A stretch of DNA of 63,402 nucleotides, filler included, from Folioceros fuciformis (Eukaryota): assembly GCA_049999805.1 (NCBI GenBank). It is 5 parts of 5 records of this genome, joined end to end, with 100 filler letters (N's around TTAATTAATTAA, not from the genome) between each part and the next. Parts side by side here need not be neighbours in the genome. Positions count along the whole stretch, not along the records: positions 50,517 to 61,550 come from JBNGIO010004088.1; 4 more parts are not named here. One strand, written 5' to 3'. Below the pieces are notes generated by a model. The model was not told where the DNA came from, searched no databases, and worked only from the letters and a program-made list of their open reading frames with translations. The position numbers were made by a program, and so were the translations under genes. Below, in pieces: positions 17,411 to 63,402 of the stretch (its first letter is position 1; each line of letters begins with the position of its first letter).

Positions 17411-17536
17411 TAGACCACTCCACCAGCTAAAGAGTGAGCAGACCAGTACGCCGTTGGAAGCTAAGGTCCATGAGTATCTGGTGTTGGGTTTGCGAAGGAA
17501 GGGGCTTTCGGGGCTCGGTTTCTGCTCCCGCCAATC

Positions 17537-20254
17537 ATGGTTTACGGGAGCGTTGCACTTGAGTCATGGAGAGGGCGTCAGGAGCACTTGACTATCCAAG
17601 GATTTCCTGGGTTAGCAGTTCTCGTAGGACGACCTTGTTGCATCAGCCTTGCAAGGAAGGCAGTTCCTCCCGGAGAATGTCTCGCTGTCAGTGATTCTGA
17701 CCCTGGCAGGCCGGCAGGACACGAATGGGGCGTGACTGCTGAGACAGTGTGCAACCTTTGTCAGCAGGGGCAACTCACGGATGCCGTGGAGGCTCTAGAT
17801 GTTCTGGCGCACACAGAAATCTGTGTTTCCCAGTCTCTCTTTTATGCTGTTCTGAAAGCTTGTGTGGTTAAAAAGGATCTTGTTCTGGGTCGCCGTGTTC
17901 ATGCTCTCACCGTGAAAACGGGGTATGAGTCAGACACGTTCCTGTGCAACCACATCCTGCGAATGTATTCTTCTCATGGGCGCTTGCAGGAAGCGATGGA
18001 TGTGTTCACCAAGGTTGTCAAACCAGATGCCTTTATGTGGTCTTCAATTATTTCTGCCCATGTTAGGCAAGGAGAACCTAAGCAGGCAGTAGAACTGTAT
18101 CATCAGATGGTCAGGTCAGGCGTGAAGCCAGATTGCCATGTGTTTGTAGCTGCTCTCCAGGCTTGCGCAAAGGGAGCAGACTTGGAAAGTGGGCAGCAGG
18201 TGCATGCTGATGTACTGACCAGTAAGATCGAGCCTGATTTGTTTGTTTGCAATAGCTTGGTGGACATGTATGCAAAGTGTGGTAGCATGAAAGAAGCTCG
18301 AAAACTGTTCGACGGACTTCGTCACAAAGATGTCGTGACGTGGAATGCTCTGATTACAGGGTATGCCCAGCAGGGCATGAGTCATGACGCCCTTGATCTG
18401 TACAGTGCTATGTCCAAAGAAGGCAACACCCCACCCAATTCTGTGACATTCGTGTGCCTCCTGCAAGCATGTGCAAGTCTGGGTACATCTGCTTTGGAGA
18501 AGGGGAAGCAGCTTCATGCACAGATTGAAGCACAAGGACGTGAAGTTAATGTGATTGTTGGCAACAACTTGATAAACATGTACACTAAGTGTGGCAGCCT
18601 ACAGGACGCTTGGAGCGTGTTCCAATCACTCCGACAGAAAGACCTGGTCACCTGGACTGCTCTGATCGCTGGATATTCCCGGCAGGGCATGGGTCGTGAA
18701 GCTCTCCATCTGTACAGTGCCATGCAGCAGCAAGGAATTGCTGCACCAGATGCTGTGACATTTGTGTGCCTCCTGCAGGCATGTGCAAGTGTGGGTGTCT
18801 TTGCATTGGAGGCGGGGAAGCAGCTCCATGCGCAGATTCGAGAAGTAGGCCTGGAAGCCGACGTGACGGTGTGTAACAATTTAATAAACATGTACGCAAA
18901 GTGTGGCAGCCTGCACCATGCTCAGAATGTGTTTGACGGTCTGAGTGAAAAAGATGTGGTCTCATGGACTGCTCTAATTGCGGGATATTCCCAGGAGGGC
19001 ATGAATCAGGAAGCCCTTCATCTTTACAGTGCTATGCAAGAAGAAGGCGTCGCTGCACCCAATTCGGTGACATTCATTTGTCTACTGCAGGCATGTGCAA
19101 TTGTGGGCCCCCCAGCTTTGGAGTCAGGGAAACAGTTGCATGCACAGATTAGAGAACGAGCACTTCATGGCGACGATGTCATGGCTTCCAGCCTTGTAAA
19201 GATGTATGCAAGGTGTGGCAGTTTACAGGATGCTCAGAACGTGTTCGACGGAATTCAAGAAAGAGATGTCACTGTGTGGAATGCCATGATTGCCGGATAT
19301 TCCCAACAGGGCATGGACCAGGAAGCCCTTTGCCTCTTCAGGGCCATGGAACAACAAGGCGTTACTGCGCCCAATGCTGTAACATTTACTTGCCTCCTGC
19401 AAGCATGTGCGAGTGTGGCAGCTTTGCACGACGGGCGACAGCTTCATGCCCATATCAAAGAGCTGGGGCTTGAAGCTAATGTGGTCGTAGCCACCAGTTT
19501 GATGAACATGTACTCAAAGTCGGGGAGCATGGGTGATGCACAGCAGGTGTTTGATTCCTTGCCAGAACGAGACGAGGTTGCCTGGAATGCATTGATTGCA
19601 GGATATGCAAGACAAGGAGACTGTGACGTGGTCTTGAACTTGGTTCAGGGAATGACACAGGAAGGCTGGCATCCAAACGCCGTCACATTTCTCAGTGTAT
19701 TGGCAGTATGCAGTCACGCAGGTCTGGTAAGCAAAGGGCAAGAATACTTCAAGGCTATGACCAGAGACTATGGCATCACTCCCACAGCAGAGCACTACTC
19801 GTGCATGGTAGATCTCCTGGGTCGGGCCGGCCAACTTGACGACGCACTGGTTTTGGTAAGGGCGATGCCTGTACAGCCTCATGAAGCAGTGTGGCACGCT
19901 CTGTTGGGGGCTTGTCAAAAGTGGAGCAACGTGGTGGTGGGACGGTATGCCTTTGATGAAGCTGTGAAGCTGGATGAGAAAGATCCGTCAGCCTATGTAT
20001 CGATGTTGAATATATATACCGATGCTCATATGTGGGAGGAGGCAGAGGAGATGCAGCTGAGGAGAACTTCCATCGGGGCATGGAAGCAGCCGGGCCAGAG
20101 CTGGTGGACAGACATGGATGGAGTGGTGCATACATTTTTGGTAGGGGACACAAAGCATATCAAGAGCGAAGAAATGTACGGGAGGTTGCAAGAGCTCCTT
20201 CCCAAGATGAAGACGGAAGGTTACCATAGGCATGTCTGGTCCAGCTGCGAGTAG
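17537..20254 (+). CDS. PLS-class PPR protein (E+ type, PGQSWW), no catalytic DYW core; paralog of the adjacent gene
   Basis: 905-aa intronless ORF with one more PLS triplet than its neighbour. Ends WKQPGQSWWTDMDGVVHTFLVGD...KMKTEGY before any HxE/CxxC motif. Confidence 0.94.
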   Translation: MVYGSVALESWRGRQEHLTIQGFPGLAVLVGRPCCISLARKAVPPGECLAVSDSDPGRPAGHEWGVTAETVCNLCQQGQLTDAVEALDVLAHTEICVSQSLFYAVLKACVVKKDLVLGRRVHALTVKTGYESDTFLCNHILRMYSSHGRLQEAMDVFTKVVKPDAFMWSSIISAHVRQGEPKQAVELYHQMVRSGVKPDCHVFVAALQACAKGADLESGQQVHADVLTSKIEPDLFVCNSLVDMYAKCGSMKEARKLFDGLRHKDVVTWNALITGYAQQGMSHDALDLYSAMSKEGNTPPNSVTFVCLLQACASLGTSALEKGKQLHAQIEAQGREVNVIVGNNLINMYTKCGSLQDAWSVFQSLRQKDLVTWTALIAGYSRQGMGREALHLYSAMQQQGIAAPDAVTFVCLLQACASVGVFALEAGKQLHAQIREVGLEADVTVCNNLINMYAKCGSLHHAQNVFDGLSEKDVVSWTALIAGYSQEGMNQEALHLYSAMQEEGVAAPNSVTFICLLQACAIVGPPALESGKQLHAQIRERALHGDDVMASSLVKMYARCGSLQDAQNVFDGIQERDVTVWNAMIAGYSQQGMDQEALCLFRAMEQQGVTAPNAVTFTCLLQACASVAALHDGRQLHAHIKELGLEANVVVATSLMNMYSKSGSMGDAQQVFDSLPERDEVAWNALIAGYARQGDCDVVLNLVQGMTQEGWHPNAVTFLSVLAVCSHAGLVSKGQEYFKAMTRDYGITPTAEHYSCMVDLLGRAGQLDDALVLVRAMPVQPHEAVWHALLGACQKWSNVVVGRYAFDEAVKLDEKDPSAYVSMLNIYTDAHMWEEAEEMQLRRTSIGAWKQPGQSWWTDMDGVVHTFLVGDTKHIKSEEMYGRLQELLPKMKTEGYHRHVWSSCE

Positions 20255-38641: not shown

Positions 38642-41600
38642 ATGGCATCCTTCTGCCGCCCGGTGGCCGAGGGCGTGTGGGCAACACAGCTGCCCAACGG
38701 CTTCGGCAGCTTCACGCCCTGCCTGGTGGACGCCGCGGTGCTCGGAATCTCGCACACTGTTCTGCTCTGCCTGGCGTTGTGGCGGATCCACCTCCTGGTC
38801 TCCGTGCCCAGGCTGATCCGCTTCCGCCTCAAATCGCTGCTGCCGCAGACATTGAAGGCGGTCCTGGCGGCTTTCCTGGTGGCCGCCCCCGTGCTGGAAC
38901 TGTCCCTGGGATGGAGCACCGTGAATGCGCCACAGGACGGGGAGCAAGGGATGCCGCCCTCGGAAATTTTCGCCCTAGCCCTCTCCGCGGTTTCCTGGGC
39001 GGCCGTGCTGGCGGCCCTGGTGATCGAGGCCAGAGTGTATGTGAAGGAGTCCGCGTGGTTCTTCAGGTTTGGGGTGGTGTACGCGCTGCTGGCCCAGGCC
39101 ACCAGGTTCCAGTACTTCTTCGCGGTGAGGGGCTTCTTTGAATCCGGCGTGGTGGGTCTGTATGCGGCGTATGGCGCTGGGGAGCTGTTGTTTTCGCTGC
39201 TGCTGCTGCTACATCTCCCAGGGCTGGAGGAGCATCCGGGGTACTCGCAGGTGGCCCTGGAGGATGTCCATGCGGGCGTAGCGGGCGGGAAGTATGAGGA
39301 GCTCCCGGGGCCTCCCGGGTGGGAGGAGCCTTTCCCCGAGCGGACGGCGGGAATTCTGTCGTGGGTCACTTTTAGTTGGATGACGCCGCTCATGAAGCTG
39401 GGCCACAAGCGGCCCATTACGGAGAAGGATGTGTGGAAGCTCGAGGGTTGGGACCAGAGTGAGGCCTTGTATGCCAACTTCAGGGAGTGCTGGGAGAGGG
39501 AATTGAGGTCGCCGAGACCGTACCTGTTGCGGGCCCTGAATCGCGCGCTGGGAGGAAGGTTTTGGCTCGGGGGGCTGTGGAAGGTGGGGAATGATGCGTC
39601 GCAGTTCGTGGGTCCCATTTTTCTGAACCTGCTGCTGCAGTCTATGCAGAGAGGGGGGCCCGCGAGTGAGGGCTACTTGTATGCGGCGTGCATCTTTGTG
39701 GGCGTGGGGCTCGGGGTGTTGGCGGAGGGGCAATACTTCCAGAATGTGATGCGGACGGGGTTTCGGATCCGGTCGTCTTTGGTGGCTGCGGTTTTCAGGA
39801 AGTCATTGCGCCTGACGCATAATGGGCGGCGTGGTTACACCACTGGGAAGATAAACAATTTGATGACCACGGATGCGGAGGCGATGCAGCAGATTTGCCA
39901 GCAGTTGCACGGCCTGTGGTCCGCCCCGGTGCGGATTGTGGTGTCTGTGGTCTTGTTGTTCCAGCAGTTGAGGTGGGCGTCGCTGGTGGGGTCGTCGGTG
40001 CTGCTGCTGCTCTTCCCGTTGCAGACGATTGTGATCAAGAGGTCGCAGAAGTTGACTCGGGAGGGTTTGCAGTGCACGGACAAGCGCATTGGGCTCATGA
40101 ATGAGATATTGGCTGCTATGGACGTGGTGAAGTGCTATGTGTGGGAGAGGAGCTTTCAGAGTAAGGTGGCTGGGGTTCGCGGGCAGGAGATTTTGTGGTT
40201 CAGGAAGGCGCAGATTCTGGCTGCTGTGAATAGCTTTCTGCTCAACAGTATTCCGGTTCTGGTCACGGTTATTGCGTTTGGGCTGTATGTGCTGCTCGGC
40301 GGGGAGCTCACCCCTGCCAAGGCCTTCACTTCCCTTTCCCTTTTCGCCGTGCTTAGGTTCCCGCTGTATATGTTCCCCAACCTGATAACGCAGGTTGTGA
40401 ACGCTCAGGTGTCGCTCAAGAGGTTGCAGGACTTGTTTCTGGCTGAAGACCGGATTTTGGAGCCCAACCCGCCCCTTCAGCTGGGGCTGCCGGCGGTCTC
40501 GATAAAGGATGGCGTTTTCTCTTGGGATCCCACGTCTCAGAAACCTACCTTGGTGGATATCAACTTGGAGGTGCCGGTGGGCAGCTTCGTTGCCGTGGTT
40601 GGAGGAACTGGAGAAGGTAAATCATCTCTTCTTTGCGCCATGTTGGGTGAGATGCCGCCTGTTGCGACCAGCGAAGCCGTCATTAGAGGGAATGTAGCTT
40701 ATGTGCCACAAGTATCGTGGATTTTCAATGCAACGGTACGGGACAATGTTTTGTTTGGCCTTCCCTACGACCCCATTCGGTATAGCAGAGCAATAAAGGT
40801 TAGTGCACTGGACCACGATTTGCAGCTTCTTCCAGGCGGTGACCTTACAGAGATTGGAGAGCGAGGTGTGAACATCAGTGGTGGGCAGAAACAGCGGGTG
40901 TCCATTGCTAGGGCAGTGTATGCCGATGCTGATGTCTATCTGTTCGATGATCCTCTCAGTGCTCTGGATGCACATGTTGCGAAACAGGTGTTTGAGACCT
41001 GCATGAAAGAAGAGTTGAAGGGCAAGACCATTGTTTTTGCTACCAATCAATTGCATTTTCTGGCTCATGTGGACAAGGTCTTTCTCGTCCATGAAGGAGC
41101 TGTGAGGGAGCAGGGCACGTTCGAGGAATTGTTGGAAAATGGTCCTCTGTTTAAGCTGCTGATGGAGAATGCGGGAAGCCTGGAGGATGCTGAGGAGGAT
41201 CTTAATCACGAGGCCGCTGAAGGTAGCTTGTCTGAGGCAAACCTTGTAGCACTGAATGGTGGTGAAGTAACAAGGGCTCCCAGCTTTTCCAAGAAGCCTA
41301 GCAAAAAGGTTGAAGAGACTAAGGCAAAGTCGGTGTTGATCAAAACTGAGGAAAGAGAAACTGGGGTTATCAGTGCCAAAGTACTGCGCAGATATCAGGC
41401 TGCAGCAGGTGGAGCTTGGGTGATTGCTGTTCTGTTTTGCCTCTATGTTTTAGCAGAAGTGGTGAGGCTCTCAAGCAGCGCGTGGCTCAGCGTGTGGACT
41501 GATGTATCGGGAACCAAATCTCACTCGCCAAATTATTACAACGCTGTTTATGCCATCCTATCCTTCTCCCAGGTATTAGTCACCCTTAGTAACTCTTTCT

Positions 41601-43492
41601 GGCTTGTTTTCTCAAGTCTAGCTGCTGCCAGGAGCCTTCATGATGGTATGCTTGGAGCTATTTTGAGGGCCCCCCTGTCGTTTTTTCACTCCAATCCTAT
41701 AGGTAGAATCATTAACAGGTTTGCCAAGGACACAGGTGATATAGACCGCAATGTCGCAATTTTCACCAACATGTTCGTGAGCTCTCTTTTCCAGTTGTTG
41801 TCCACCTTCGTTATGATTGGTTATGTGAGCTCCTTGTCCCTTTGGGCGGTGTTACCTCTTCTTCTTATGTTTTATTATGCATATGAATATTTCCAAGCCA
41901 CCGCACGTGAGGTGAAGCGTCTTGATTCAGTCACGCGATCTCCAGTATATGCACAGTTCAGTGAAACTTTGAATGGTTTGGCCACCATACGTGCTTTCAA
42001 GGCACATGATCGCATGGCCCACATGAATGCTGCAACTATGGACATCAACGTGCGCTACACCCTCGTGAGTATGAGCGCAAACCGGTGGCTTGGTATTCGT
42101 CTGGAGTTCCTCGGTGGCCTTATGATCTTTGTCACTGCATTTCTGGCTGTTCTGGGGACTGCTCGAGCCTCCAACCCAGCAACATTTGCTCCTCAGATGG
42201 GTCTGCTTCTGAGCTACGCTCTGAACATAACTAGCCTCATGACGGGCGTCCTGCGCCTTGCCAGTGTGGCTGAGACCAGTTTCAATGCTGTTGAGAGAGT
42301 TGGAACCTACACCGACATTCCACCTGAAGGTCCGCTAGTTATTGAGGACACCCGTCCGCCACCAGGATGGCCGGATGCAGGAGCTATAGAATTCCGAGAT
42401 GTTATGCTGCGGTACCGACCAGAATTGCCTCCAGTGTTGAACGATCTGTCCTTTAGCGTGAGGCCTCATGAGAAAATCGGGATTGTGGGCAGGACAGGGG
42501 CTGGAAAATCGAGTATGATGAATGCACTTTTCCGAATAGTGGAGGTTGAGCAGGGTCAGATCTCGATTGATAACCTTGTCATTGCCAGCATTGGGCTGGC
42601 AGACCATAGGAGACACTTGGGAATCATCCCTCAGGTTCCTGTCCTGTTTTCGGGCACCATCAGGTTCAATCTGGATCCTTTTGGCGAGCACAGTGATGGT
42701 GATCTATGGGAGGCACTTGAAAGGGCGCATCTCAAGGATGTTGTCAGAAGGAGCTCTTCTGGCCTCGACATGGACGTTTCGGAGGGGGGTGACAACTTCA
42801 GTGTGGGGCAAAGACAACTTCTAAGTCTTTCTCGAGCACTGTTGCGAAGGTCTAAGATTTTGGTGCTCGATGAAGCAACTGCGGCCGTGGACGTTGCAAC
42901 GGATGCACTTATCCAGAGAACTATAAGGGAGGAGTTCAAATCTTGCACGATGCTCATCATTGCCCACAGGTTGAACACAATAATTGACAGTGACCGCATC
43001 CTTGTCCTTGACAATGGCCAGGTGATTGAGTTTGACACTCCTTATAATCTGCTAGCCAAGGAGGATAGTCACTTTGCCGGAATGGTCAGGAGCACTGGCG
43101 CCGCAAATGCTCGTCACTTGCAGCAACTTGTTATGGAAGCGCTGGAAGAGAAGAGAGAAGAGGAAGCACGGCTAGGACAGGTCAGAGATAGGATTACTTC
43201 AAGATGGGAGACCGCAGCAAAATGGGCGCTGGCTATGAGTCTGACCAGCTCAAACCGTGATTTGAAGGCGTTTTGTGATGCTGCCGAAGGACAGGAGGAA
43301 ACTATAATTGAGCGTAGTCGCGATGCTGCCAAGTTGTTGCAGGAGATCATGTTAAGAGAACATGATAATGAGATACAGGAGGAATTAGAGAGACGGGGCA
43401 TCCCTGAGGAACAGTGGTGGGCTGCGTTGCTCCGTGTTGTAGATGGCCTGGGAGGAATGGGGCGACAGCTGCGAAGGAATCTCTACAAGTGA
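38642..43492 (+). CDS. ABC transporter subfamily C, MRP1/MRP2 (ABCC1/ABCC2)-like, intronless, 1616 aa
   Basis: FCRPVAEGVW...FGSFTPC N-terminus, GGTGEGKSSL, GVNISGGQKQRVSIARA, GRTGAGKSS, NFSVGQRQLL, and the ABCC1/2-type C-terminal extension (SRW..AA.WALAMSLTSS.RDL). TATA-like TATAAG at about 38554. Confidence 0.96.
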   Translation: MASFCRPVAEGVWATQLPNGFGSFTPCLVDAAVLGISHTVLLCLALWRIHLLVSVPRLIRFRLKSLLPQTLKAVLAAFLVAAPVLELSLGWSTVNAPQDGEQGMPPSEIFALALSAVSWAAVLAALVIEARVYVKESAWFFRFGVVYALLAQATRFQYFFAVRGFFESGVVGLYAAYGAGELLFSLLLLLHLPGLEEHPGYSQVALEDVHAGVAGGKYEELPGPPGWEEPFPERTAGILSWVTFSWMTPLMKLGHKRPITEKDVWKLEGWDQSEALYANFRECWERELRSPRPYLLRALNRALGGRFWLGGLWKVGNDASQFVGPIFLNLLLQSMQRGGPASEGYLYAACIFVGVGLGVLAEGQYFQNVMRTGFRIRSSLVAAVFRKSLRLTHNGRRGYTTGKINNLMTTDAEAMQQICQQLHGLWSAPVRIVVSVVLLFQQLRWASLVGSSVLLLLFPLQTIVIKRSQKLTREGLQCTDKRIGLMNEILAAMDVVKCYVWERSFQSKVAGVRGQEILWFRKAQILAAVNSFLLNSIPVLVTVIAFGLYVLLGGELTPAKAFTSLSLFAVLRFPLYMFPNLITQVVNAQVSLKRLQDLFLAEDRILEPNPPLQLGLPAVSIKDGVFSWDPTSQKPTLVDINLEVPVGSFVAVVGGTGEGKSSLLCAMLGEMPPVATSEAVIRGNVAYVPQVSWIFNATVRDNVLFGLPYDPIRYSRAIKVSALDHDLQLLPGGDLTEIGERGVNISGGQKQRVSIARAVYADADVYLFDDPLSALDAHVAKQVFETCMKEELKGKTIVFATNQLHFLAHVDKVFLVHEGAVREQGTFEELLENGPLFKLLMENAGSLEDAEEDLNHEAAEGSLSEANLVALNGGEVTRAPSFSKKPSKKVEETKAKSVLIKTEERETGVISAKVLRRYQAAAGGAWVIAVLFCLYVLAEVVRLSSSAWLSVWTDVSGTKSHSPNYYNAVYAILSFSQVLVTLSNSFWLVFSSLAAARSLHDGMLGAILRAPLSFFHSNPIGRIINRFAKDTGDIDRNVAIFTNMFVSSLFQLLSTFVMIGYVSSLSLWAVLPLLLMFYYAYEYFQATAREVKRLDSVTRSPVYAQFSETLNGLATIRAFKAHDRMAHMNAATMDINVRYTLVSMSANRWLGIRLEFLGGLMIFVTAFLAVLGTARASNPATFAPQMGLLLSYALNITSLMTGVLRLASVAETSFNAVERVGTYTDIPPEGPLVIEDTRPPPGWPDAGAIEFRDVMLRYRPELPPVLNDLSFSVRPHEKIGIVGRTGAGKSSMMNALFRIVEVEQGQISIDNLVIASIGLADHRRHLGIIPQVPVLFSGTIRFNLDPFGEHSDGDLWEALERAHLKDVVRRSSSGLDMDVSEGGDNFSVGQRQLLSLSRALLRRSKILVLDEATAAVDVATDALIQRTIREEFKSCTMLIIAHRLNTIIDSDRILVLDNGQVIEFDTPYNLLAKEDSHFAGMVRSTGAANARHLQQLVMEALEEKREEEARLGQVRDRITSRWETAAKWALAMSLTSSNRDLKAFCDAAEGQEETIIERSRDAAKLLQEIMLREHDNEIQEELERRGIPEEQWWAALLRVVDGLGGMGRQLRRNLYK

Positions 43493-50516: not shown

Positions 50517-53500
50517 ATACCCGGCGCGGCTACTGGGCAAGGGGAGCTGGAGCCGGAGCTCGCTCGCTCGCCGTCTCGCCACAAACGCACTCGCAGGCAA
50601 CAACCCAGCGCAGCAGCAGCAGCACAAGTAGCACAGGAGAAGCAGCAGGAGCAAGAGAAGGAGCAGGAGCTGGAGCCGGAGCGAGAGAGACAAGGCAAAG
50701 TGCCACAGCCCAGCTGCTCACTCTCTCGCTTTCGCACGAGCCCACCAGGTCCAGGGAGGAGAGCGGGCAACGCGGGTGTGGGGGAGAGAGGTGGAGGACA
50801 GGCCAGTCCAGGCCAGGAGAGGCGAAGGCAAGCCAAGGCTAAGCCAGGCAAGCCTGCCCCTCTTTCTCCTTCCCTTCCTCCGCGTCGCCTCTTTTGAGCG
50901 AATTGTGGGTCGATGTGTCCTCGACTTTTTCAGCTTGGCGGGCCAAACGCGAAACCGGACCCAGAGCCAAACCCGCAGGCGACGACATTCCCCTCCGTTT
51001 TCACATTCCCGGTACCCGTCAAACATGCCACTCCCACTTTCCCACCCCCCTTCGCTTAGCCCTACAATCATCTAACCAACTTGCCCCTATTCTTTCCTTT
51101 CCTTCCGCCCCTCCTTTCCCACCTCTAGCTTTACATTCCTTCTCACACACGCAGCAGATATAGCTATGTACCTCCATATCAGCTACAAGGTAGCCAGCCC
51201 AAAGGAAGAAGACACATGTCCTACTCTCGACAATCAGCCGTAGCAGTATCATAGGTTTGTCAGAGCTTTGTCATCCGGGATTTGTCATCGGAGCTTTGTC
51301 ATCGTCACACACACACACGTCCATAACCGACGGAAGGGACTGACAACCATCTCGTGGCCACTTCCACAAGAGTTGCAAGACTCGCTCCACTTGTCCTGGT
51401 ACCGCTTTGGTGGAGGTGGTTCAGCAATAGACAGATAAGATGGATAGGATAAGGTCACCCTTTCGTACATCTTGTCTCCAAGTAGGAAAGATAGCAGACC
51501 ATCTCTCCCACCCAACCATATCTGATTAGGTTAGGTATGCCCTACCTCCCTTCCTTTCTTCTTTCATGATGCAGGGTTGTAAGCCACTACAGCGGCTAGG
51601 GATTGGTCATCATTCTCCAATTAGCATTTGGGGAAAGATTAAAACTTGCCACTCAATGCAACCACACATGTACAACCTCTACCCTAGCAAGGAAAGGAAA
51701 GGAAAGAAAAGATCCGATGCTCTGGCACCAATCTGACACTAGATGGTAGGTGGGTTGTTGCAGAGAGTTGGACTGACTCCTCATTGTCTTGGGTCCCTCC
51801 AATGCTCCTCACTGTCCTGGGTCCCTCCAATGCACGATTGCTTTAACATATTGTTGGAGTGCACGATAGGGTAGGGTCCCGGTCCCTTGCAGAGTGGATG
51901 CATCCGATCCACCTTTGCTTTCAAGCTGTTGGTTGTACAATGCAGTGCACAATAATTTGTGGTTGTTGCTGACAAGATGCTTCCACTTTGTCCCATGACC
52001 TTGTTGTCATGTCGTTACCAACAAGCAACCTTGGGTGGTTCACCATGCTCTCATGTCAGAATTAGCTAGCTACGTGCGTGTGGGGTGTCATATTAACTGT
52101 CTGACACATGTAAGTTGTGAGAGAGAGAATCATTGTTTCGTTACCTGTCTTGAAATTTTGCATTTATCTTGGCACCTTCTTCCAAACAAATCCATCCTCC
52201 TTGTCCAAAGGACATGGATCTCCTATCTGGAGAACATGGGCGCATCATTGTTGCCCTTCTTTGCCATAGCAAAAATCGCTTTAGAAGGTGCCATTTCAAA
52301 CTCACAAGCTCTTCAATGGAGGCAAGTAAAATTGTTGGTGTGACAAGGACCACTAATCCCTAGAGCTCCCTTGTCCGAATGTTATGCTTTAAAATAAATA
52401 GCTGAAATTAATATAAAATTTTAATATTTGGTTATCTTGGACTTCAAAGACGTACCGCATCGTACATACATCCATCCTCTCGGAGTCAATCCCGAGAAGT
52501 TGACGATTATACAGGCATTATTTTGGATAGTGAGAATGGGGAAGGGATGGGTGCATGGGAGAGCTATTTGTCACGTATGATGCAAGCAATTGTGACCCTA
52601 AAAGCAAAATCTTCTGGATGGGTCAGAATAACGACTTGGGTCTTTGCAACGATTCCCAAGGAAAAGCCATTTTTTCATCTGTTTGGACTTGGCAGTGTAA
52701 GTACATCGGCAACGCTGAACGATTTATCTCCTGCAGGCTGGAATCGGCCGAATATTCGAATTTGAAGAGTGGCAGCAGATCCGGGGAACCCCGACCCCGG
52801 CACGGCGAGCGGTAAAAGACCGTGTCCCGCTCCAGTCACAGCTTGCTCAAGAGCTATAATAAGCACAGTACATGCCCTCCTCATCCAAAGATCGTACCTG
52901 GCTACCTTGAGAGATGCGGTAATTTGCGAAATGGTAGTCAAGCCGTAGCGACAGAGTAACGTTGAAGATGGAGAGCAAGACTGACGACTCCATCCCACCT
53001 GGCCTAACGCTCGATCCCTGTAATGCCGATGCTTGCCGTGCTGACTTAGCTTGTTGTGACATTTGCTCGGTTTCATCTCGAGCCAGTGGGATCTGGGGGG
53101 GGGTGGGCCGCCCGTCCCGCCCCCGGGGGCCTTTCACCCGCCCAACGTTAATTTCCAGGGATTGGCTAACTTCCCAGAATTGCAGCAGGATTAATCACAG
53201 CTTGGGAGGGCTGCCTGAGTACGGCCTAGCTCATCAATCGCAACCCACCCAGTTACCAGAACAGGAGGGCAGCCTGGCACAGCAATAAGATCAGATCCAA
53301 CTCGTGCGGAACCGTGTTCCTTCCCACCAGCAGCCCTCATTCTTCCATGTGGATTCCCTTGTGACGGTGTCATTCCGTTCATATATGGTTACTAGGCCAG
53401 CGCCTGTATCTTCGTTGCTCTATCTTCGTTTCAAGCCTTCCGGATATTGGGGTTGATTGGGAGGTTCCATCCTACACAGCGGACTCCAAGGATGCTGTGC

Positions 53501-53935
53501 TTGACCTGGCATCCACACGCTGAAATCGCGACATTCAGAAATGACATCCCTTCCTTCAGCAGGAAATTGTTGCCCAGGTCAACAGGCTGGAGAGACACAT
53601 GATAGGTCAAAGAAGCCCCGACAGGGCATCAAACCATTTGCCAACAGGTTCACTAAACTTGCGTCAAACGAAAATGTGCTACGTACAAGACGTGAACATT
53701 GGCAATGCTGAGAAAGCAGCAGCAGATGAGGATCCGTACCAGCCACTATTGTCTACCATGAACCATGCTCAACAGGGGCAGTTGTCTGAGCAAGCTGCAC
53801 GCCTGCCAGAAATCCTCCTCAGCGAAAGAGTTTCGAAAGTGCGCCATGGAAGGAAGGATCGTCGGGGAAAACTAGTCAGAACAAGGATAAACCAAACTCA
53901 GTTGTCACATGTGTCTGTCTGACTCCGGAAACCTC

Positions 53936-55362
53936 TCACGGATGTTCGGCAACCAAAGACACATATTCTGCTGTGATGCGACCCTTGAGCTTTGTGTTGA
54001 TGATGAACCGCTGTGGGTATCTCTTCAGCAAAGCTAGAAGGCCAGCCCAGGGCTTTAACTTGACCTCACTATCAGCATTGTTCCCAGCCTCTGGTGGCAG
54101 ATGTCGTTGAAGTACTGCAGGTGTGCATATATGAGAACAATGCTCAGTAAGCTGCAGCAGGACGAAGACAAAAAGCTGTCTTAGAAAGAAGGGGCGTCAA
54201 GACACGACTCACAATCTGCCTAGACATGGCCTACAACCTTTCACACCTGTTGTTAACCTAGTGAACAAACAAATCTCTAGTGCATCACATAACTCAATCA
54301 AGGTCCTGCCCAAAAGACCACAATTACAACTAGGCCTACGATGTTTCTCATAACTAACTGAGGTTTGACTCATCTGCGGTCACATGACCGAGCAGAGCAT
54401 GCTTCGAAAGCAGCAGCTGGCTAATCTAACAATTCATAATCTCATCCACACTGTCCAAGGTGCACCACGCAGTCCCCCACAAGGGAGTGGACAGCACACG
54501 TACCATCTCCACAGCTCTATGACGGGAACAACAACGTACCTCCGAGTATAATTTTGCCAATGGCATCCACTCCCCAGGGTTAGTGTGCTCTGCCAATGCC
54601 GTTGAGGCTGCTGACAGAACATCTCTGTCCTCAAGTTGCACGGCTGCGCTATCGGATTCAGAATCGGCCCGTCTTCTAGGCTCTGCCGCCATTGATCAAA
54701 GATCACAGCCATGAAGAACGGACACACATCATCAAAGCCACTCTCTAGACCTATGGTGTTGTCGGTGATTGCTGACCAGTAATAGAAGAAGGACCGTGTG
54801 CGGAGCTACTCCCGGCTGCTTCTCCAGCATGAGGAACCACGCCTGGCTCCTTCCTCCCTCTACCACTGCTGCCCTCGCCCTTGGGCTGACTCCTCCTCTT
54901 CGGAGGTGGCGGTTGAGAAGTACCATCCTCCAACGAGGCCTTGGACGTCCTCCCCGCACTGGCAGGCCTCTTCCTGGACGACCCGGCCGCACCCGCAGAC
55001 GCGGCCCTGGAAGACTTCTTGCTCACCACCGGCAACAGGAAGTAGAACTTCTTATCCCCGATTTGCAGCAATTCCTGCGAGTTCAGCTTCACGGGCTCCA
55101 GGCCCGGCTGAATATGATTTCCATCCACATAGCACCCGTTCTTTCCAAGAACTTCCAGCACAAACCCCTTCCGATCAAAGTCATAGAAGATCTTAGCGTG
55201 CTGCCGAGAAATGTTCATCCCACCTCCCCGACCTAGCGCCAAATCCACATCCACGTACGACTTCTTGCTGTTTCTCCCAAGAATGATGGAATACGATTGC
55301 ATGTAGTACTCGAAATCTTCCCCCTGCAGCTTTGCAAACCCGAGCTCCAATTTGTCCGCCAT
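53936..55362 (-). CDS. FHA-domain transcriptional regulator (plant FHA1/FHA2-like), 3 exons
   Basis: GFAKLQGEDFEYYMQSYSIILGRNSKKS.VDVDL...GGGMNISRQHAKIFYDF. Exon 2 (~54540-54682) has PGEWMPLAKLYSE. Exon 3 (53936-54151) has KPWAGLLALLKRYPQRFIINTKLKGRITAEYVSLV. Confidence 0.92.
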
Positions 55363-55510
55363 CTCGCTCTGCCCGCTCTTCCGCTCAACTCGTCTAGGGC
55401 AAACGCAAAACAAGTTTTCATAAACAATGTCAGACCACGGCTCCCTTCAGTTCATATGGTCCATACTCCGGTCTTTCCAAGACCTACGTTTTTCGGTTTG
55501 TGTGCCTGCC

Positions 55511-56253
55511 AGCTTTCTTTCGGTTCCAGTCAGTCCCGTGCTGCTCTAATGCCTCGTGTTAGGAGGCCATCACGCTCCGTTTTCGTTGCCTCCTTCTTGG
55601 CCTGCTTCCTACGCTCGGGGGATGGATGCCTGTGCTGCGTTGCTGCGTGCTCGGGGTACTTCTTATCCGTGCTTTCCTTTAGACAAGAGTTGTCCTCGAG
55701 GAGGACGTCTGTTTCTGCAACTGGTCTTCCGTTTCATGTTTCGAGCCTTTTAAAGTAGATACACTTTCCTTGACATGCGATGTTGGTATACAGCATTCAC
55801 TCCCCGCACTGCAGACGTAGTGTTGGCTTCAGGTGGTAAGGCTTCTAGGCTTCGCGACTTCGCTCGGGAAGAGAATGCACTCTTGATGAAGACAGGCAAG
55901 ACAGCCGTTGTGCGGATGAATTCCATATTCTTGATTCAATTGGGACAGAAAGGAAAAGGCTCCTAAGCTAAGCTTTCTTTCGGTTCCAGTCAGTCCCGTT
56001 CTGCTGTGATGCCTCGTGTTAGGAGGCCATCACGCTCCGCCTTCGTTGCCTCCTTCTTGGCCTGCTTCCTACGCTCGGGGGATGGATGNNNNNNNNNNCT
56101 ACGCTCGGGGGATGGATGCCTGTGCTGCGTTGCTGCGTGCTCGGGAAGAGAATGCACTCTTGATGAAGACCGGCAAGACAGCCGTTGTGCGGATGAATTC
56201 CATATTCTTGATCCAATTGGGACAGAAAGGAAAAGGCTCCTAAGCTAAGCTTT
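55511..56253. repeat. Near-identical tandem duplication (A-insert-B-A-B)
   Basis: 55511-55655 matches ~55971-56145 and 55862-55976 matches ~56139-56253. The second copy contains a 10-N gap. Confidence 0.85.
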
Positions 56254-56572
56254 TCCAGTTTATGATGATGGTGGAGGTTTCAGGATGTTAGGTATTGTAT
56301 TTGTTAAATTTCTGATCACTCATTTATATTTGTTTAGAAATATAATAATTACTGAAAATTTAGTGGAAACCCGGTGGCTCTGGTGTATCTAGGGGCTGTG
56401 GCGGGCATTCTTGTCCATGAGTCTGGTCGCCTTGACTCCGCGCTGGCTGCTGTGTAGGACACCGGTTTTTTTTTCAAGTAGAATTGGTAGTTAGGCGAAA
56501 TAGGAGGCCTTAACAACGTGGCAGGCTCGGAGAGAACTAAATTAAAGATGGAAACAAGGGGGCACCGTGGAG

Positions 56573-56581
56573 TATATATAG
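56573..56581 (+). promoter_or_regulatory. Candidate TATA box of the SBH transcript
   Basis: TATATATAG about 245 bp upstream of the uORF ATG and about 510 bp upstream of the main ATG. Confidence 0.5.
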
Positions 56582-56819
56582 AGTGAAGGCTAACCCCGCG
56601 GGTTAAGTCAGTGGAGAGGGAAGCTTCGTTGGCCGGTGAGAAAGGCCTCGTGTTGCTCTGGCCCTCGGCCAAGTCGTCCAAAGCTGACCCGCAGGCCAAG
56701 ATAGGGTTTGAGGTGGTGACGTGAGTTTCACTCACCGCAAGTTTAAATCGAGCGAGGTGGAGCTTGGAGAGCAAGGGAATTGGGTGGAAACCCTGTGTCA
56801 ACATTTTAGACGAAAGCAA

Positions 56820-56915
56820 ATGGCATACTGGGACAGCGACGAGATGATGAAAACCTGCTTTCCCTGTCTGTTGTTGTGGATTTATGCTGGCATGTTGAGA
56901 CCCGCGGTGTTGTGA
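56820..56915 (+). CDS. 31-aa upstream ORF similar to the SBH N-terminus
   Basis: AAAATGG context. MAYWDSDEMMKTCFPCLLLWIYAGMLRPAVL* aligns with the main ORF start MAF-LNDELLGIFSPIVVYWLYAGM. Confidence 0.6.
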   Translation: MAYWDSDEMMKTCFPCLLLWIYAGMLRPAVL

Positions 56916-57087
56916 GCAATTGGCAGCAGCAGGGACAGAGCAGCAGCAGTAGGAGCAGAGACACTGGTGCAGCACAGCTTGCAACAGGAGGAATACCAGC
57001 ACTGGCTTTAGGAGCAGCAGGACAAGCAGAGGCAGCAAGAGCAGGAGGGGTAGGCTGCAACAGCAGCTGCTTGTGACTGGGAGTGTC

Positions 57088-57938
57088 ATGGCGTTCTTGA
57101 ACGATGAGCTCCTTGGCATCTTTTCTCCCATCGTGGTGTACTGGCTGTACGCGGGGATGTACCACTTGCTGCCGCGTTTGGATCAGTATCGGATTCACAC
57201 GCGCAAGGACGAGGAAGCGCGCAACAAGGTGAGCCTGGGGGAGGTGGTGAGAGGCGTGCTGCTCCAACAGGCCATCCAGGCGACAGTGGCCGCGATTGTG
57301 TTTCAGGTATGATCCGGGACGCCTTCTCCGTTGCGGTGTCTTGCAGCCGGGTGAAGGCGATGCTGCCGGGCCGGCGTTGACAAGTGTGGTGATGTAATTG
57401 GCAGGTCGGGGGAACCGCAGGGACGAAGGTGCAGCCTCCTGTGATGATCCAGGTGGCGCAGATCTTCGCGGCTATGGTGGTGATGGATGCATGGCAGTAC
57501 TTCGTGCACAGGTTCATGCATCACAACCAGTTCCTCTATCGGCATGTGCACTCGTTGCACCATAAATTAGTCGTGCCCTATGCAATTGGGGCTCTGTATA
57601 ATCACCCGGTGGAGGCTCTGATGCTTGATACCTTGGGAGGGACTATTTCGTTCCTCATGTCAGGGATGACACCGCGGACTGCTATTTGGTTCTTCTGTTT
57701 TGCGACGATCAAAACGGTGGACGATCATTGTGGCCTTATGCTGCCTTTCAACCCCTTTCACTTCTTCTTCCAGAACAACACGGCGTACCATGATGTACAT
57801 CACCAGACTCAGGGCATCAAGTACAATTTTTCGCAGCCGTTCTTCGTGTCGTGGGACAAGCTGTTCGGGACTTACATGCCCTTCACTTTGGTGCGATCGG
57901 CTGATGGAAGCTTGCAGGCAAAGTTGGTGAAGAACTGA
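57088..57938 (+). CDS. SBH: Sphinganine C4-monooxygenase (sphingoid base hydroxylase, SBH/SUR2 family); intron 57307-57404
   Basis: DAWQYFVHRFMH, HVHSLHHKLVVPYAIGALYNHPVE, KTVDDHCG and YHDVHHQ histidine boxes, KYNFSQPFFVSWDK. Confidence 0.96.
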
Positions 57939-59800
57939 CAAGGTCCAGAAACCACGCTGGGCTGATATGGCTCAAGAACAGGCATGCACCCGGCTGTCTC
58001 CGGTGGTGCAACAGGGCTTGACATCTGTACAATTTGTGGTCGTAGGAAGCGCACAACCGCCCTTCTCTTACCTACTGCTCTGGATGGTTATGTATGTTAT
58101 TTGAGATCTTCGAAGAGCCGGCCACTCTCAGCTTGTTCCCAGGTAAGGATGCTTGTGCAGCAGAGGAGGCCGAGCTTGTGCTTCTGTCTTTGTCTCTGCT
58201 CATCAGCTGTCAGAGCTGCTTGAGCAGGGAGAGTGGCACATGCACGTTTGTGTATGGAAACAGACGATGAGTTCCTTACTAGTGATCTTTGACTGGGATT
58301 CCTGTATAAAGGAACTTGATTTATTCAATTCTGAATGCTTTGTTTGCAAAGCAAGAGTCCTATTCCTCTTTTCTGTTCGCATCTGAGTGTGTGTGAAATT
58401 CACTGAAAGCGAATGAGGTCCGCACCAGTCATCTGTGACTGGATGGACACACAATGCCAGTGAATCTTCTCGGATTCTTGCACACCAATGACTCTCTCAC
58501 AGATGCGCTTGTGTTGATTCTTCTATAAAGGGAATCTTCACAGCTATGGACTTCCAAATTTTGTAAATTAAAGAACTCGATTAATTTTACTCGGACGCGA
58601 ATTGATTTCGCAAAGGTTTGTTATCATCTCTAAATAGCAGAACATTTATGGCTGAATATAAAATTAAAACTCCTACTCTTAAAACGAATATACAGGTTTT
58701 CTCATTAAAAAGAGAGGGAAATTCACCGAAAGGATTATGCCTTTCTAAATTGAGGGGGGGACTAGCCCCGTGATAATGAAGCTAGCATGCTAAATCCTCC
58801 GTCAAAGCATTGTCCATGTATTTCGGCGTGTTGTTGGATTTTGTTAACCCTTGGAGGCTGAGTTTAGGAGATGTTGGCAAGTTTTGTTATGAAAGACGGT
58901 CAGGGATCCTCGAGGTTGAGATAACCGCATTTTGTAGTCTCAATCACTTCTGAACTTGCTAAAAACGAAGAGTGGGCTCGCAATCCTATTGGCTTGTTAG
59001 AGGAAGCGGAATGAGATGCCCTTCAGATATGAAAGGTGGTCACAAAAAGTGAAGCAAGGAGTCTCCTGTGTTGCTTGATTCCTGTTATTTCGTGTACTGG
59101 TGGGTAGAGTTGGGCCGGGGCCCGGTGTCTGTCCCAGGCCCTTGTCCTCGGGAGCTAAAGATCATTTCTATCCATAAAGTGTTGTCTATGTTCTTCTTTA
59201 AAAAAAACAGAATGAAGAAGACGTAAAGGAGCCGGATGCACAAAGCGTAGACTTTACAGCAGTGCAGCAACTTCTTCTTTATTCCCACCTGACCAGGTCT
59301 CCAAATCACCAGCCCTCCTGAAGAAGTAATATCCTGGGACCCCACCTGACAACAGATCGAAGCACAGGATGCTAAAGCCCGAAGTTCCTCTTGGACACAT
59401 ATTTGCAACAACTTCGGGCTAGGCCTTCGAGGACACCCTCCCGTCCTCCAAGGGACTGGAATGTCGGCCCCTGTTTTGCTGCTCGTTACCCGGGTGCCGA
59501 GCTCTCTCTTGGTATTGTCCTGTACACTTCTAGGACTTTCTACTCTTCCTCAGGGTGAGCCTGGCCAGAGCTTGGACCACTGCTGGCCAGACACCGTCAT
59601 TCACATCTCTGGTATGGACCAGTCCACGACCACCTGAAAAAAAACTCCAAATGGCAAGCAGCAGAGGGATCACCTTGCTTTCATGAATGGAGTTTAAGGG
59701 ATGATGCCGTGCAGGTACATCCCTGGCAGCTGATTCGAAGCCTCTTTTGTGTTGTGCATGATTTCAACCATGCAAAACACAAAAGTGCAGAATACTGAGA

Positions 59801-59862
59801 TTGTTTGCACAACCCCGATGGAAGGTTTCCAGCTTGTTTACACAACCCAGTGGAAGGTTTCC
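59801..59862. repeat. Imperfect 33-bp tandem repeat
   Basis: TTGTTT(G/A)CACAACCC..TGGAAGGTTTCCA occurs twice. Confidence 0.7.
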
Positions 59863-60087
59863 ATAGCTGGGAAACATATTGGGGGATGTCGATGAAACGG
59901 CAGAAGAGATCACAAGGTCTACAACAACCTGAACACAAACCAAAAACTTCACTTCAGTACGCTTGGTACCTAACCATCTCAAACACACTTGTGACACAAA
60001 TCGTTAACAGAAGACATGTATAAGATGACTTCACGTCTGCAACCCGAAGATTCCAGTAAACCCTTCAAACTGGGCAGGTCATTCACC

Positions 60088-60129
60088 AGAGGAGAGGAGA
60101 GGAGAGGAGAGAGGAGAGGAGGAGAGGAG
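60088..60129. repeat. (GGAGA)n microsatellite
   Basis: Direct reading of the sequence. Confidence 0.85.
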
Positions 60130-61550
60130 CAGAGCTGTTCTTCTTCTTTCAAGGTTTGAAAACACTGACTTGTCTGCTAACTCTAGAAGACCACCTTCCA
60201 GTGGCAAGAGCCTGGTCCCTTCATTTTGAAGATCCTGCAAAGGTCCTCCGAACACTACTTTCAGAGCCGAATCCTAAAATGTATCCACAGACATACAAAA
60301 CGTGAGTTTTTGATAAAAGTGACCGAAACCACGGTCGCATCCTGCTCAAACTGACCTCAATAATATGAGAAACCTGCCTCATAACATATCAAGCTAACAG
60401 ACGAAGGCCGGCAGCAATCTCTCACCTATGCCAACTTGCTCCATCTCCCGTTGTATTGTCCGGTCTCGCAAGGTACTCCGTCTCCAAAATTTACCCACAA
60501 CCATCCAAGAAAGCGTCCAGCCTCAACAAACGCCATGATTATTCTAAGTTCTAGAACCACTGCACAGAAAAGCAGGAAAAATTGTTCCCCACCAAGCAGC
60601 AGGAATGTTCACCGGCAGATCGAGCACTAGCCCCACTTCGCCTGCTCCCCATCCACTTCCGAAGAGGAAATTCCTAGAAAGCGCAGCTGTGGGGTTTACA
60701 ATTTCAAACAGCCATGACAAGATCTTGAGTCGTCTCGAACGACTCGGTCAGCAAGTGCCGAGCAGCAGCAACAGAGCCCACCGCCAGCCCGCTTACAAAA
60801 ATACAGTAGTCGGCCATTCGTGTGCCTCACAAGGGATATGGATCGGCGGACATCGATGCCTGCTTATTCAAGATTTGAATCTCCCACTGTATTTTCTGGA
60901 CCTACAGCAAGAACAGTATAGTGTTTTCCGATTCGCGGTTTTTTGAGTTGACGAGCCGTGTGGTTGTGCCCGCCAGCCAGTCGCTATTCATTTACGGAGA
61001 TCATCGGGACTGCGACCATGGCGATGCTTGCCTGGAGTATGTCTAACTATATCCTTAAAGAGCGTTCTTAGTGAGTGCAATCTCGGATGTGTGACTGCAC
61101 AGATCTCCAATCGTTGCCCAAATTGGTCCACGAATTCGTACCACACCTGTCGCATATGGGGTTGATCACTGCTGCACCTCCACCAGTTTCGTCAACTCCA
61201 CCAGTTCCGAGTTATTTGGACTCAGACGCCTGGCGGGACTGGCATACCAATGTTCTTATGCCTCTGGCGGTGCCAAATCATGGATTCCAACACAGGGAAA
61301 ACATTGTGGTGGCGCATCCGGATTCAGATCCGGTTTCTCAGGGAACCCCGCTTAACTACGAGTGAGCTCTTCCCGTGTAGCTGGCGGTGGACTGATTTCT
61401 GCAGCTGCATGACATTGTGCTGTTCAAAAGCTCTAAACTATATGCCGTGTGTTGCAGGCACCTGGTCGCGAATGCGTTCCAATGCCACCGGGGGGATTTC
61501 GTACAAGGGACGCTGCTTGTGGAGCCTTGCTATTTGACATCCATATTCAG

Positions 61551-61650: not shown

Positions 61651-63402
61651 GTATATAACTTAGTTTTAAAAGATCTTAATAAAAATAAACTAAGATAATA
61701 ATACTTTTAAAAGAATATTTTATTAAAAACTTAAACTATAGATATATACTAAACTTATATATAGTAAAGTAAGTATTAATATACTTAAAAAACTTTTAAA
61801 TAAAAGTATTTAGATTAATAATAAGCTATATAAACTAAAGCTTAAAAAATAAAGCTTTTATTAATAAGATAATCTAGCTAATATAGAAAAGGTTTACTTA
61901 TTCTAAAGTTATATATAGAACTTATACTATAGAGTATTATACTTCTAGCTAACCTAAAGCTATATATCTTAATAATATTAATTAAGAAGATACAAAATAG
62001 AAGAAATCTATAGAAAAAAAAAGTAAGAATAAAAAAATATACTATACTTATAGTAAATCTAAGTACTTTACTAGAAACTATAAGTTTAAGAATAAAATAA
62101 TATATTATATTAGTAGTATTAAAAGAAAAGAAGACTACTATATCTTTAACTAAATACTTAATATACTTTCTTAATATTATAAATCTAGAGTAAAGTAGTA
62201 TAGTAAGTTATTTATAAAGAAATAGTAGCTAGTTAATTCTATATATAAATAACGTAGAAATAGTTATATAACTTCCTTAGACTCTTATATATAAAAAAAG
62301 GCTTAGTAGTAGTTCTCTATATAAAATATATAAGAAATTCTTAGGCTTCTCTAAGTAAGAAAAGCGAGAAATATAAATATATAGTTATTATAAGTTAATA
62401 TTACTAGAATAGTATAATTAACTTAGTTATCTAACTTAGATACTATACTTAAAACTACTTAGTTATTTTAACTCTTATTTATTAAACCTACTCTATCTAT
62501 AAAACTTAACCTAAGTACTACNNNNNNNNNNGTATATAACTTAGTTTTAAAAGATCTTAATAAAAATAAACTAAGATAATAATACTTTTAAAAGAATATT
62601 TTATTAAAAACTTAAACTATAGATATATACTAAACTTATATATAGTAAAGTAAGTATTAATATACTTAAAAAACTTTTAAATAAAAGTATTTAGATTAAT
62701 AATAAGCTATATAAACTAAAGCTTAAAAAATAAAGCTTTTATTAATAAGATAATCTAGCTAATATAGAAAAGGTTTACTTATTCTAAAGTTATATATAGA
62801 ACTTATACTATAGAGTATTATACTTCTAGCTAACCTAAAGCTATATATCTTAATAATATTAATTAAGAAGATACAAAATAGAAGAAATCTATAGAAAAAA
62901 AAAGTAAGAATAAAAAAATATACTATACTTATAGTAAATCTAAGTACTTTACTAGAAACTATAAGTTTAAGAATAAAATAATATATTATATTAGTAGTAT
63001 TAAAAGAAAAGAAGACTACTATATCTTTAACTAAATACTTAATATACTTTCTTAATATTATAAATCTAGAGTAAAGTAGTATAGTAAGTTATTTATAAAG
63101 AAATAGTAGCTAGTTAATTCTATATATAAATAACGTAGAAATAGTTATATAACTTCCTTAGACTCTTATATATAAAAAAAGGCTTAGTAGTAGTTCTCTA
63201 TATAAAATATATAAGAAATTCTTAGGCTTCTCTAAGTAAGAAAAGCGAGAAATATAAATATATAGTTATTATAAGTTAATATTACTAGAATAGTATAATT
63301 AACTTAGTTATCTAACTTAGATACTATACTTAAAACTACTTAGTTATTTTAACTCTTATTTATTAAACCTACTCTATCTATAAAACTTAACCTAAGTACT
63401 AC
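61651..63402. repeat. Two apparently identical 871-bp AT-rich copies (61651-62521, 62532-63402) with a RIP-like composition
   Basis: Copies are separated by 10 N. Per copy I counted 0 TG, 1 CA and 2 CG; nearly every C is in CT and every G in AG. Confidence 0.85.

Follow-up and report, generated by a model that had tools for sequence, protein, structure and literature searches.

How does the 5' leader of a gene come to carry a second, short reading frame whose peptide resembles the beginning of the gene's own product, and does this peptide serve any purpose? The question is posed by a sphingoid base hydroxylase (SBH) gene of Folioceros fuciformis, which is located in a stretch of 63,402 nt referred to here as the window. 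The window joins five parts of genome assembly GCA_049999805.1, separated by filler; the SBH gene resides in the part derived from JBNGIO010004088.1 (positions 50,517 to 61,550), and all positions are counted along the window. A preliminary description of this DNA had interpreted an upstream open reading frame (uORF) in the SBH leader as a mimic of the N-terminal hydrophobic segment of the enzyme, which could sense long-chain bases and stall ribosomes, target the mRNA to the endoplasmic reticulum (ER) or modulate SBH in the manner of a microProtein. Our analysis places the uORF on the SBH mRNA and finds its peptide homologous to the SBH N-terminus. As to origin and role, we favour, with some reservation, the view that the uORF is a relic, left either by duplication of the SBH 5' end or by a tandem paralog of which only a stump survives, and now acts as a generic uORF.

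The uORF resides in the 5' leader of the SBH mRNA

The uORF extends from 56820 to 56915 on the plus strand, begins with ATG, comprises 31 codons followed by TGA and encodes the peptide MAYWDSDEMMKTCFPCLLLWIYAGMLRPAVL. A CAG-rich spacer of 172 nt (56916-57087, plus strand), whose length varies among relatives, separates its stop codon from the SBH start codon. A TATA-like box (TATATAT, 56573-56579, plus strand) is located upstream of the 5' ends of the transcript contigs and may serve as promoter element. The preliminary description had these elements right, that is, the ORF coordinates, the 31-codon peptide, the 172-nt spacing and the upstream TATA-like box, as well as the codon pairs discussed below.

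To place the uORF relative to the transcript, four public sequencing runs were compared over positions 56200-58700. Their RNA nature is a guess of the source listing; we read them as transcriptomes because a 98-nt intron of the SBH gene is skipped in all four, a processed DNA copy being the formal alternative. Their small size (29-49 million letters) and the fact that the contigs stop near the gene ends agree with the transcriptome reading. One contig of 1787 nt (record 2 of run X1) matches positions 56689-57303 plus 57402-58573 with 0 differences from the window and carries the uORF, together with a leader free of splicing and the complete coding sequence of SBH, on a single transcript-like molecule. 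The uORF start codon and its in-frame stop codon both lie within the 5' leader of the SBH mRNA, i.e. this is a true uORF. The presence of uORF and SBH on one mRNA, as assumed previously, is confirmed by this identical, intron-less contig, and a transcription start downstream of 56915, which the preliminary description had named as fatal to its proposal, is contradicted by the contig's start at 56689. Contigs from two related organisms begin at 56655 (run X3) and 56685 (run X7). The leader covers at minimum 56689-57087 (plus strand), as delimited by the identical contig, and the true transcription start site is probably located somewhat upstream.

The SBH gene itself is composed of two exons on the plus strand. 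Exon 1 (57088-57306) comprises 73 codons and encodes the N-terminal segment in the gene's own version, MAFLNDELLGIFSPIVVYWLYAGM; exon 2 (57405-57938; 177 codons plus TGA) encodes the hydroxylase domain with its three histidine boxes. The sole intron (57307-57404, plus strand) is 98 nt long and bounded by GT..AG, and the corresponding joint, 57303->57402 with the cut at +3, recurs in four of four runs. The 3' untranslated region (57939-58573, plus strand) is given to the extent covered by the identical contig X1 record 2, which ends at 58573. Exon 2 matches the Pfam family FA_hydroxylase (PF04116) with an E value of 1.4e-26 and 93.9 bits as compared to a cut-off of 31. Histidine boxes are defined by the patterns HX3H, HX2HH and HX2HH, and the exon 2 translation contains HRFMH, HSLHH and HDVHH. 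The SBH protein has 1351 matches at E <= 1e-10. Among the 120 plant proteins listed, identity over exon 2 ranges from 64 to 76%, and the relatives from liverworts, mosses, Selaginella and seed plants are about equally distant within this range. The names provided by the sources among the matches listed include sphinganine C4-monooxygenase, sphingoid base hydroxylase 2 and GL1-9-like. By these comparisons, the main ORF encodes an SBH, a member of the FA_hydroxylase superfamily whose closest relatives are plant sphinganine C4-monooxygenases and whose enzyme activity is putative.

As no ATG is found between 56561 and 56819, the first AUG of the leader is that of the uORF. It has C at -3 and G at +4, the former making for a weak start context; the main SBH AUG has G at both positions. 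Additional in-frame AUGs are nested within the uORF at 56844, 56847 and 56892, and an out-of-frame ORF of 4 codons begins at 56884, likewise inside the uORF. The uORF frame is +1 relative to the main ORF, and N-terminal extension of SBH by read-through is therefore impossible. Folding of the leader revealed no excess of stability over shuffled sequences (z -0.08; 46 of 100 shuffles at least as stable). In the spacer, Tandem Repeats Finder (TRF) detected a period-3 GCA run at 56923-56958. The contigs of the relatives break in this CAG-rich region (56916-57087).

The uORF peptide is homologous to the SBH N-terminus

Alignment of the uORF peptide with the gene's own exon 1 yielded a local BLOSUM62 score of 51, which was equalled by 0 of 5000 peptide shuffles (maximum 40, mean 19.4, standard deviation 4.1). 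When two foreign SBH proteins, P0059 and P0115, were used as tblastn queries against the six frames of the 63-kb window, the uORF ranked third, behind both real exons, with E values of 6.7e-4 and 8.3e-4 over query residues 1-28, while the following matches had E values of 0.013-0.4. In addition, a hidden Markov model (HMM) was made from the N-termini of 84 of the 120 foreign matches, namely those with a full canonical start, and compared with the 2909 six-frame stop-to-stop pieces of the window. The model retrieved exon 1 with an E value of 4.7e-15 and the uORF with 6.1e-6, the next piece following at 0.38. Its match starts exactly at the uORF methionine and spans profile positions 1-28. The SBH-homologous part of the uORF is represented by codons 1-25 (56820-56894, plus strand), which lead from the methionine to YAGM and correspond to residues 1-28 of canonical plant SBH minus three residues. 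Foreign queries and family model agree in this respect, and the homology to the N-terminal hydrophobic segment of SBH asserted in the preliminary description stands.

Could a random leader ORF simply resemble a hydrophobic N-terminus by chance? In favour of coincidence, the segment comprises no more than 25 residues and is hydrophobic, and DNA alone reveals no significant similarity. However, the score was out of reach of 5000 composition-preserving shuffles, independent foreign queries and the family profile single out the uORF in the whole window (E from 6.7e-4 to 6e-6), and the alignment begins at the methionine and covers profile positions 1-28. On the basis of the shuffle test, the foreign tblastn queries and the family HMM, we consider chance resemblance, which has next to no credibility left, as refuted. 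A phmmer search with the uORF peptide against 1.84 billion representatives gave 0 matches at E <= 0.001, in a collection in which ORFs so small are rarely called.

The uORF represents an old, truncated copy

What, then, is the relationship between the two copies? Scores of the uORF peptide against foreign SBH N-termini amount to 65-73 for the 45 best of the 120 matches, as compared to 51 for its own gene. The top foreign examples are P0059 (score 73), which begins with MAWWDGYISDDVMGTIAPLVIYWLYAGL, and P0115 (score 72), beginning with MVFWEGYVSDELMGTFAPIVIYWLYAGM. In a three-way alignment of uORF, main ORF and 84 of the 120 family members, three residues are missing in the uORF, whereas four different ones are missing in the main ORF segment MAFLNDELLGIFSPIVVYWLYAGM. 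In three columns the family residue is retained in the uORF and lost in the main ORF, and in 11 columns the uORF has changed and the main ORF has not. The separate deletions together with this distribution of columns indicate that both copies descend independently from a canonical ancestor. Judged by these columns, the uORF copy has apparently changed about twice as much, or as fast, as that of the main ORF.

At the DNA level, the aligned parts of the two copies are identical in 42 of 72 positions (58%). The best local alignment of the DNA is indeed the stretch from ATG to YAGM, but its score of 12 is within the range of shuffled sequences (mean 10.5, maximum 15), and the 130 nt upstream of each ATG show no similarity (score 8 versus a shuffle mean of 8.5). 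Nei-Gojobori (NG86) estimates between the copies are 0.49 for the nonsynonymous (dN) and 1.58 for the synonymous rate (dS), giving a dN/dS of 0.31 with saturated dS. Since each copy has suffered different small deletions and dS has reached 1.58, the copy is old.

Homology ceases after codon 25 of the uORF, and the six codons that follow (LRPAVL) have no counterpart in SBH. A tblastn search in six frames revealed no further SBH-like piece in the 63-kb window besides the uORF and the two exons. As far as can be read from the sequence, the uORF is a truncated duplicate: the 5' end of the parent is homologous and the remaining gene is absent from the window. In the scenario that we prefer, the first ~25 SBH codons, which begin with the start codon, include the first hydrophobic helix and end at YAGM, would have been duplicated long ago, and the surviving SBH gene would now have the copy in its 5' leader. 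Its source may have been a partial tandem duplication of the 5' end or, alternatively, an upstream tandem paralog losing all beyond codon ~25. Both origins fit alike, and they are inseparable because the DNA-level signal is insignificant and nothing is shared upstream of the ATGs. The stump of a deleted tandem SBH paralog had been listed in the preliminary description as an outcome that would undo its proposal; the data agree with this possibility no less well than with a functional mimic.

Is the peptide under selection?

The preliminary description had argued that the residues shared by the two copies mostly use different synonymous codons, and that similarity is held in protein rather than in DNA, which is not expected for a neutrally decaying duplicate. 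The codon pairs put forward (GCA/GCG, GAC/GAT, TAT/TAC, GCT/GCG, GGC/GGG) are all found as listed. Bases are identical at the first, second and third codon position in 16, 15 and 11 of 24 cases, respectively, so the counts are as claimed; the contrast among them is not significant (Fisher p 0.14), and a preservation in protein rather than DNA is borne out weakly at best. Moreover, this pattern cannot discriminate between a selected peptide and a copy in decay. Purifying selection on the main ORF copy is enough to make differences accumulate at synonymous sites, whether or not the uORF has a function. Indeed, when crude simulations let the uORF copy evolve neutrally and kept the main ORF under constraint, conditional on the DNA identity found between the two copies, an amino-acid identity of at least 10 of 24 was reached in 29-36% of the cases.

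Other observations speak against a mere relic. In the same simulations, the observed BLOSUM sum of 59 was reached in 1.4-1.9% of the cases, and in 0.1% when all change was placed on the uORF copy. The replacements are more conservative than this crude neutral model predicts, which is a weak hint of constraint. If the dS underlying the dN/dS of 0.31 is real despite its saturation, a copy that had always been neutral should have decayed further. In the relatives X3 and X7, the uORF frame is free of frame-breaking indels, whereas the spacer has four indels in X3, albeit in a CAG microsatellite.

These observations are what one would expect if the uORF encoded a selected peptide or micropeptide, which had retained the shape of the first SBH helix because it is used. 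The product could act in two ways: inserted post-translationally as a single ER helix, similar to a tail-anchored protein, it could modulate SBH or a partner, or it could tune SBH translation in cis as a nascent peptide. In addition to the conservative replacements, the low dN/dS and the intact frame, such a peptide would account for the family-typical residues W4, SDE, M, T, P, W and YAG, with 12 of 25 residues being the commonest of the family, for an intact hydrophobic stretch covering residues 13-31 and for the position of the uORF AUG as first of the mRNA. There is, however, much on the other side. The relatives compared are ~94% identical to the window over the region, too close to reveal conservation across lineages. 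The six C-terminal residues are unrelated to SBH and it is there that a two-codon insertion occurs in X7. The start context is weak owing to the C at -3, and a uORF of this kind is not described in the literature searched. The statistics are small, comprising 24 codons and a crude model, and they suffer from ascertainment bias, the case having been chosen for its similarity. Moreover, a copy that had been part of a functional paralog and was truncated late would show all these signs of constraint equally. Weighing both sides, we regard a selected peptide as rather unlikely, if worth keeping in mind.

Within the uORF (56820-56915), the comparison with the relatives covers indels: X3 has none, and X7 has a single in-frame insertion of 6 nt (two codons) in the uORF tail. 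In the spacer, deletions of 3, 2, 6 and 3 nt are present in X3, a 14-nt insertion in X2 and a 36-nt repeat-back in X7. The sequence of X2 (organism B) sets in at 56968, within the CAG run, and is uninformative as to the uORF. In the leader, 21 of 386 positions differ in X3 and 14 of 248 in X7. The corresponding figures are 12 of 283 when exon 1 and the last part of the leader are taken together, and 78 of 1052 across exon 2 and the 3' untranslated region. That is, the leader is not specially conserved in the relatives and diverges about like the remaining transcript.

How the uORF may act

If the uORF is a relic, as we prefer to think, it may nevertheless affect the expression of SBH. Some of the scanning ribosomes would start at the uORF AUG cluster and terminate at 56915. 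According to the scanning model, the SBH AUG could then be reached by leaky scanning past the weak uORF AUG or by reinitiation over the 172-nt spacer. The net effect would be a moderate damping of SBH translation, independent of the peptide sequence, and the peptide would be without a function of its own.

How do the roles proposed in the preliminary description compare? Overall, the functional side of that proposal finds no support in the sequence. Ribosome stalling by the peptide is possible. In stalling peptides, the part nearest to the peptidyl-transferase centre is usually critical, yet in the uORF the stop-proximal residues are the non-homologous and variable ones, and the likeness to the SBH helix would have no part in such a mechanism. 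Targeting of the mRNA to the ER by the uORF product is improbable. The ribosomal exit tunnel holds about 30-40 residues, and a 31-residue chain would be released at termination with its hydrophobic part, residues 13-31, still in the tunnel. A single-helix modulator inserted after release from the ribosome is physically possible, judging from the peptide's length and hydrophobicity. In its boldest form, this idea would make the SBH mRNA functionally bicistronic, giving rise to a tail-anchored-like peptide of 31 residues derived from the first SBH helix, a cis-encoded microProtein generated by duplication of the 5' end; we think this improbable. On this same improbable reading, the peptide would replace or compete with the first helix, either in SBH itself or at a shared partner such as an electron donor. 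If it were true, each mRNA would provide the enzyme together with a stoichiometric modulator, which could tune the ratio of di- to tri-hydroxy long-chain bases.

Finally, the uORF might be an alternative first coding exon, spliced near its 3' end into exon 1 to produce an SBH isoform with a different first helix. On paper, 14 in-frame, stop-free GT..AG combinations lead from 56894-56912 to acceptors in exon 1, and the divergence of record 9 of X7 upstream of the uORF shows that there is some heterogeneity among transcripts. Against this, the 98-nt intron accounts for the only joint seen in four of four runs, and along the leader the identical contig remains collinear with the window, with the limit that contigs drop rare forms and a minor uORF-spliced isoform could escape. 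Moreover, the donors and acceptors available on paper never restore the spacing that the family has between YAG and the conserved YRxH motif. Such an isoform appears very improbable.

The X7 record just mentioned (organism D, 488 nt) is an observation in its own right. It is identical to the window over 35 nt (56816-56850, which includes the first ten uORF codons), and its upstream part differs. The sequence of this record beyond 56816 is absent from the window. As an AG is present at 56815-56816, the record could represent an alternative 5' exon spliced in front of the uORF, or else a second locus that has the start of the uORF.

Surroundings of the SBH gene and other features of the window

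Upstream of the SBH gene, an exon encoding an FHA domain (PF00498, E 1.6e-12) occupies 54751-55446 on the minus strand. Its gene is divergent from SBH, and a short shared intergenic region would result. Between this gene and the SBH promoter, a direct repeat with a period of ~460 bp extends over 55509-56255, in which 55509-55650 resembles 55969-56130 and 55865-55976 resembles 56145-56255. The repeat includes an assembly gap of 10 N at 56090-56099, and the 55976/55977 form is spanned by an X1 contig. Either a genuine tandem duplication or an error of assembly may underlie the repeat. A loose end of X1 at 56253 was considered as a possible splice and rejected, as it is explained by this direct repeat. 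Antisense to leader and exon 1, an open frame of 277 codons spans 56349-57182 (minus strand). Its translation is rich in leucine, cysteine and serine over the CTG/CAG run, and the frame looks like a by-product of the repeat rather than a gene.

In other parts of the window, remains of a Copia-type retrotransposon are located at 8597-13592 (plus strand), comprising one frame that resembles gag, another that resembles integrase, and a reverse transcriptase of the RVT_2 type (PF07727, E 1.1e-70). Two long, intron-less pentatricopeptide repeat (PPR) genes with E motifs are arranged head to head at 14948-17563 (minus strand) and 17474-20254 (plus strand), their frames overlapping by ~90 nt at the 5' ends. 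An intron-less frame of 1616 codons at 38642-43489 (plus strand) encodes an ABCC-type transporter, which is 57-66% identical to liverwort, moss, Selaginella and seed plant homologs alike. It has no close named relative in the protein collection, from which it follows that the lineage of the window is poorly represented there. Two identical AT-rich frames of 109 codons each, 881 nt apart, are present at 61878-62207 and 62759-63088 (minus strand) and indicate a repeated AT-rich unit at the end of the window.

Comparison with known systems

How does the SBH uORF relate to regulatory uORFs and small proteins known from other systems? Similar to the conserved peptide uORFs (CPuORFs) of plants, such as those of SAMDC, the S1 bZIP genes and PEAMT (for homology groups see PMC7106846 and PMC9305500), it is an AUG-initiated ORF residing wholly in the leader of a gene for a metabolic enzyme. 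As in these cases, it begins at the first AUG and is followed by a spacer long enough for reinitiation. Unlike these, it is known from relatives that are ~94% identical and not across taxa, its C-terminal residues are unconserved, and its peptide is homologous to the N-terminus of its own main ORF. According to PMC7106846, the ESUCA pipeline discards uORFs whose peptides match main-ORF N-termini in many orders, as these are not selected for their peptide; the SBH uORF peptide aligns to SBH residues 1-28 of many orders and would be removed. The main text of PMC7106846 and PMC9305500 contains 0 occurrences of 'sphing' or 'hydroxylase', i.e. none of SBH or sphingolipid genes. A literature search for uORFs in SBH or sphingolipid genes found none, and a search for uORFs derived from duplication of the main ORF returned nothing relevant among the papers listed.

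A second comparison concerns the 'spurious' CPuORF or uORF-main ORF fusion exemplified by OsUAM2 in PMC7106846. There, too, the uORF peptide matches N-termini of the main-ORF type across many orders, and the uORF is a real N-terminal exon that is split off by a splice variant or by annotation. In contrast, the SBH main ORF has a complete segment of its own, the uORF is a second, paralogous copy, and a fusion form is unseen in the four runs.

A third comparison is with truncated tandem duplicates, with which the SBH uORF shares a same-strand, truncated 5' copy directly upstream and eroded DNA similarity. The consecutive identifiers Gb_30408 and Gb_30409 among the Ginkgo matches are a weak hint that tandem SBH pairs exist elsewhere. 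What sets the SBH stump apart from such duplicates is that it retains a start codon and an open frame and is transcribed in the leader of the surviving gene, and hence became a uORF. Few uORFs are expected to originate in this manner. Read as a relic, it provides a clean natural example of how a start codon and a short frame can be set before the surviving copy when the 5' end of the gene itself is partly duplicated or truncated. It also carries a warning for uORF screens: similarity between the proteins of uORF and main ORF may be inherited from a coding past and is not in itself a sign of peptide function.

Finally, small proteins that act on larger ones include the microProteins of the LITTLE ZIPPER type and single-helix membrane regulators such as sarcolipin and phospholamban. 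Like the microProteins, the uORF product is very small and homologous to one element of a larger protein, and its length and C-terminal hydrophobic stretch would fit one membrane helix, as in the membrane regulators. Unlike the microProteins, it is encoded in cis on the mRNA of its own target, an arrangement of which we know no described case for such regulators, and it is known here from sequence alone. Should the peptide be used after all, it would represent the first case of a membrane helix being mimicked by a peptide that is encoded in cis with the enzyme, and could offer a new handle on sphingolipid hydroxylation in plants.

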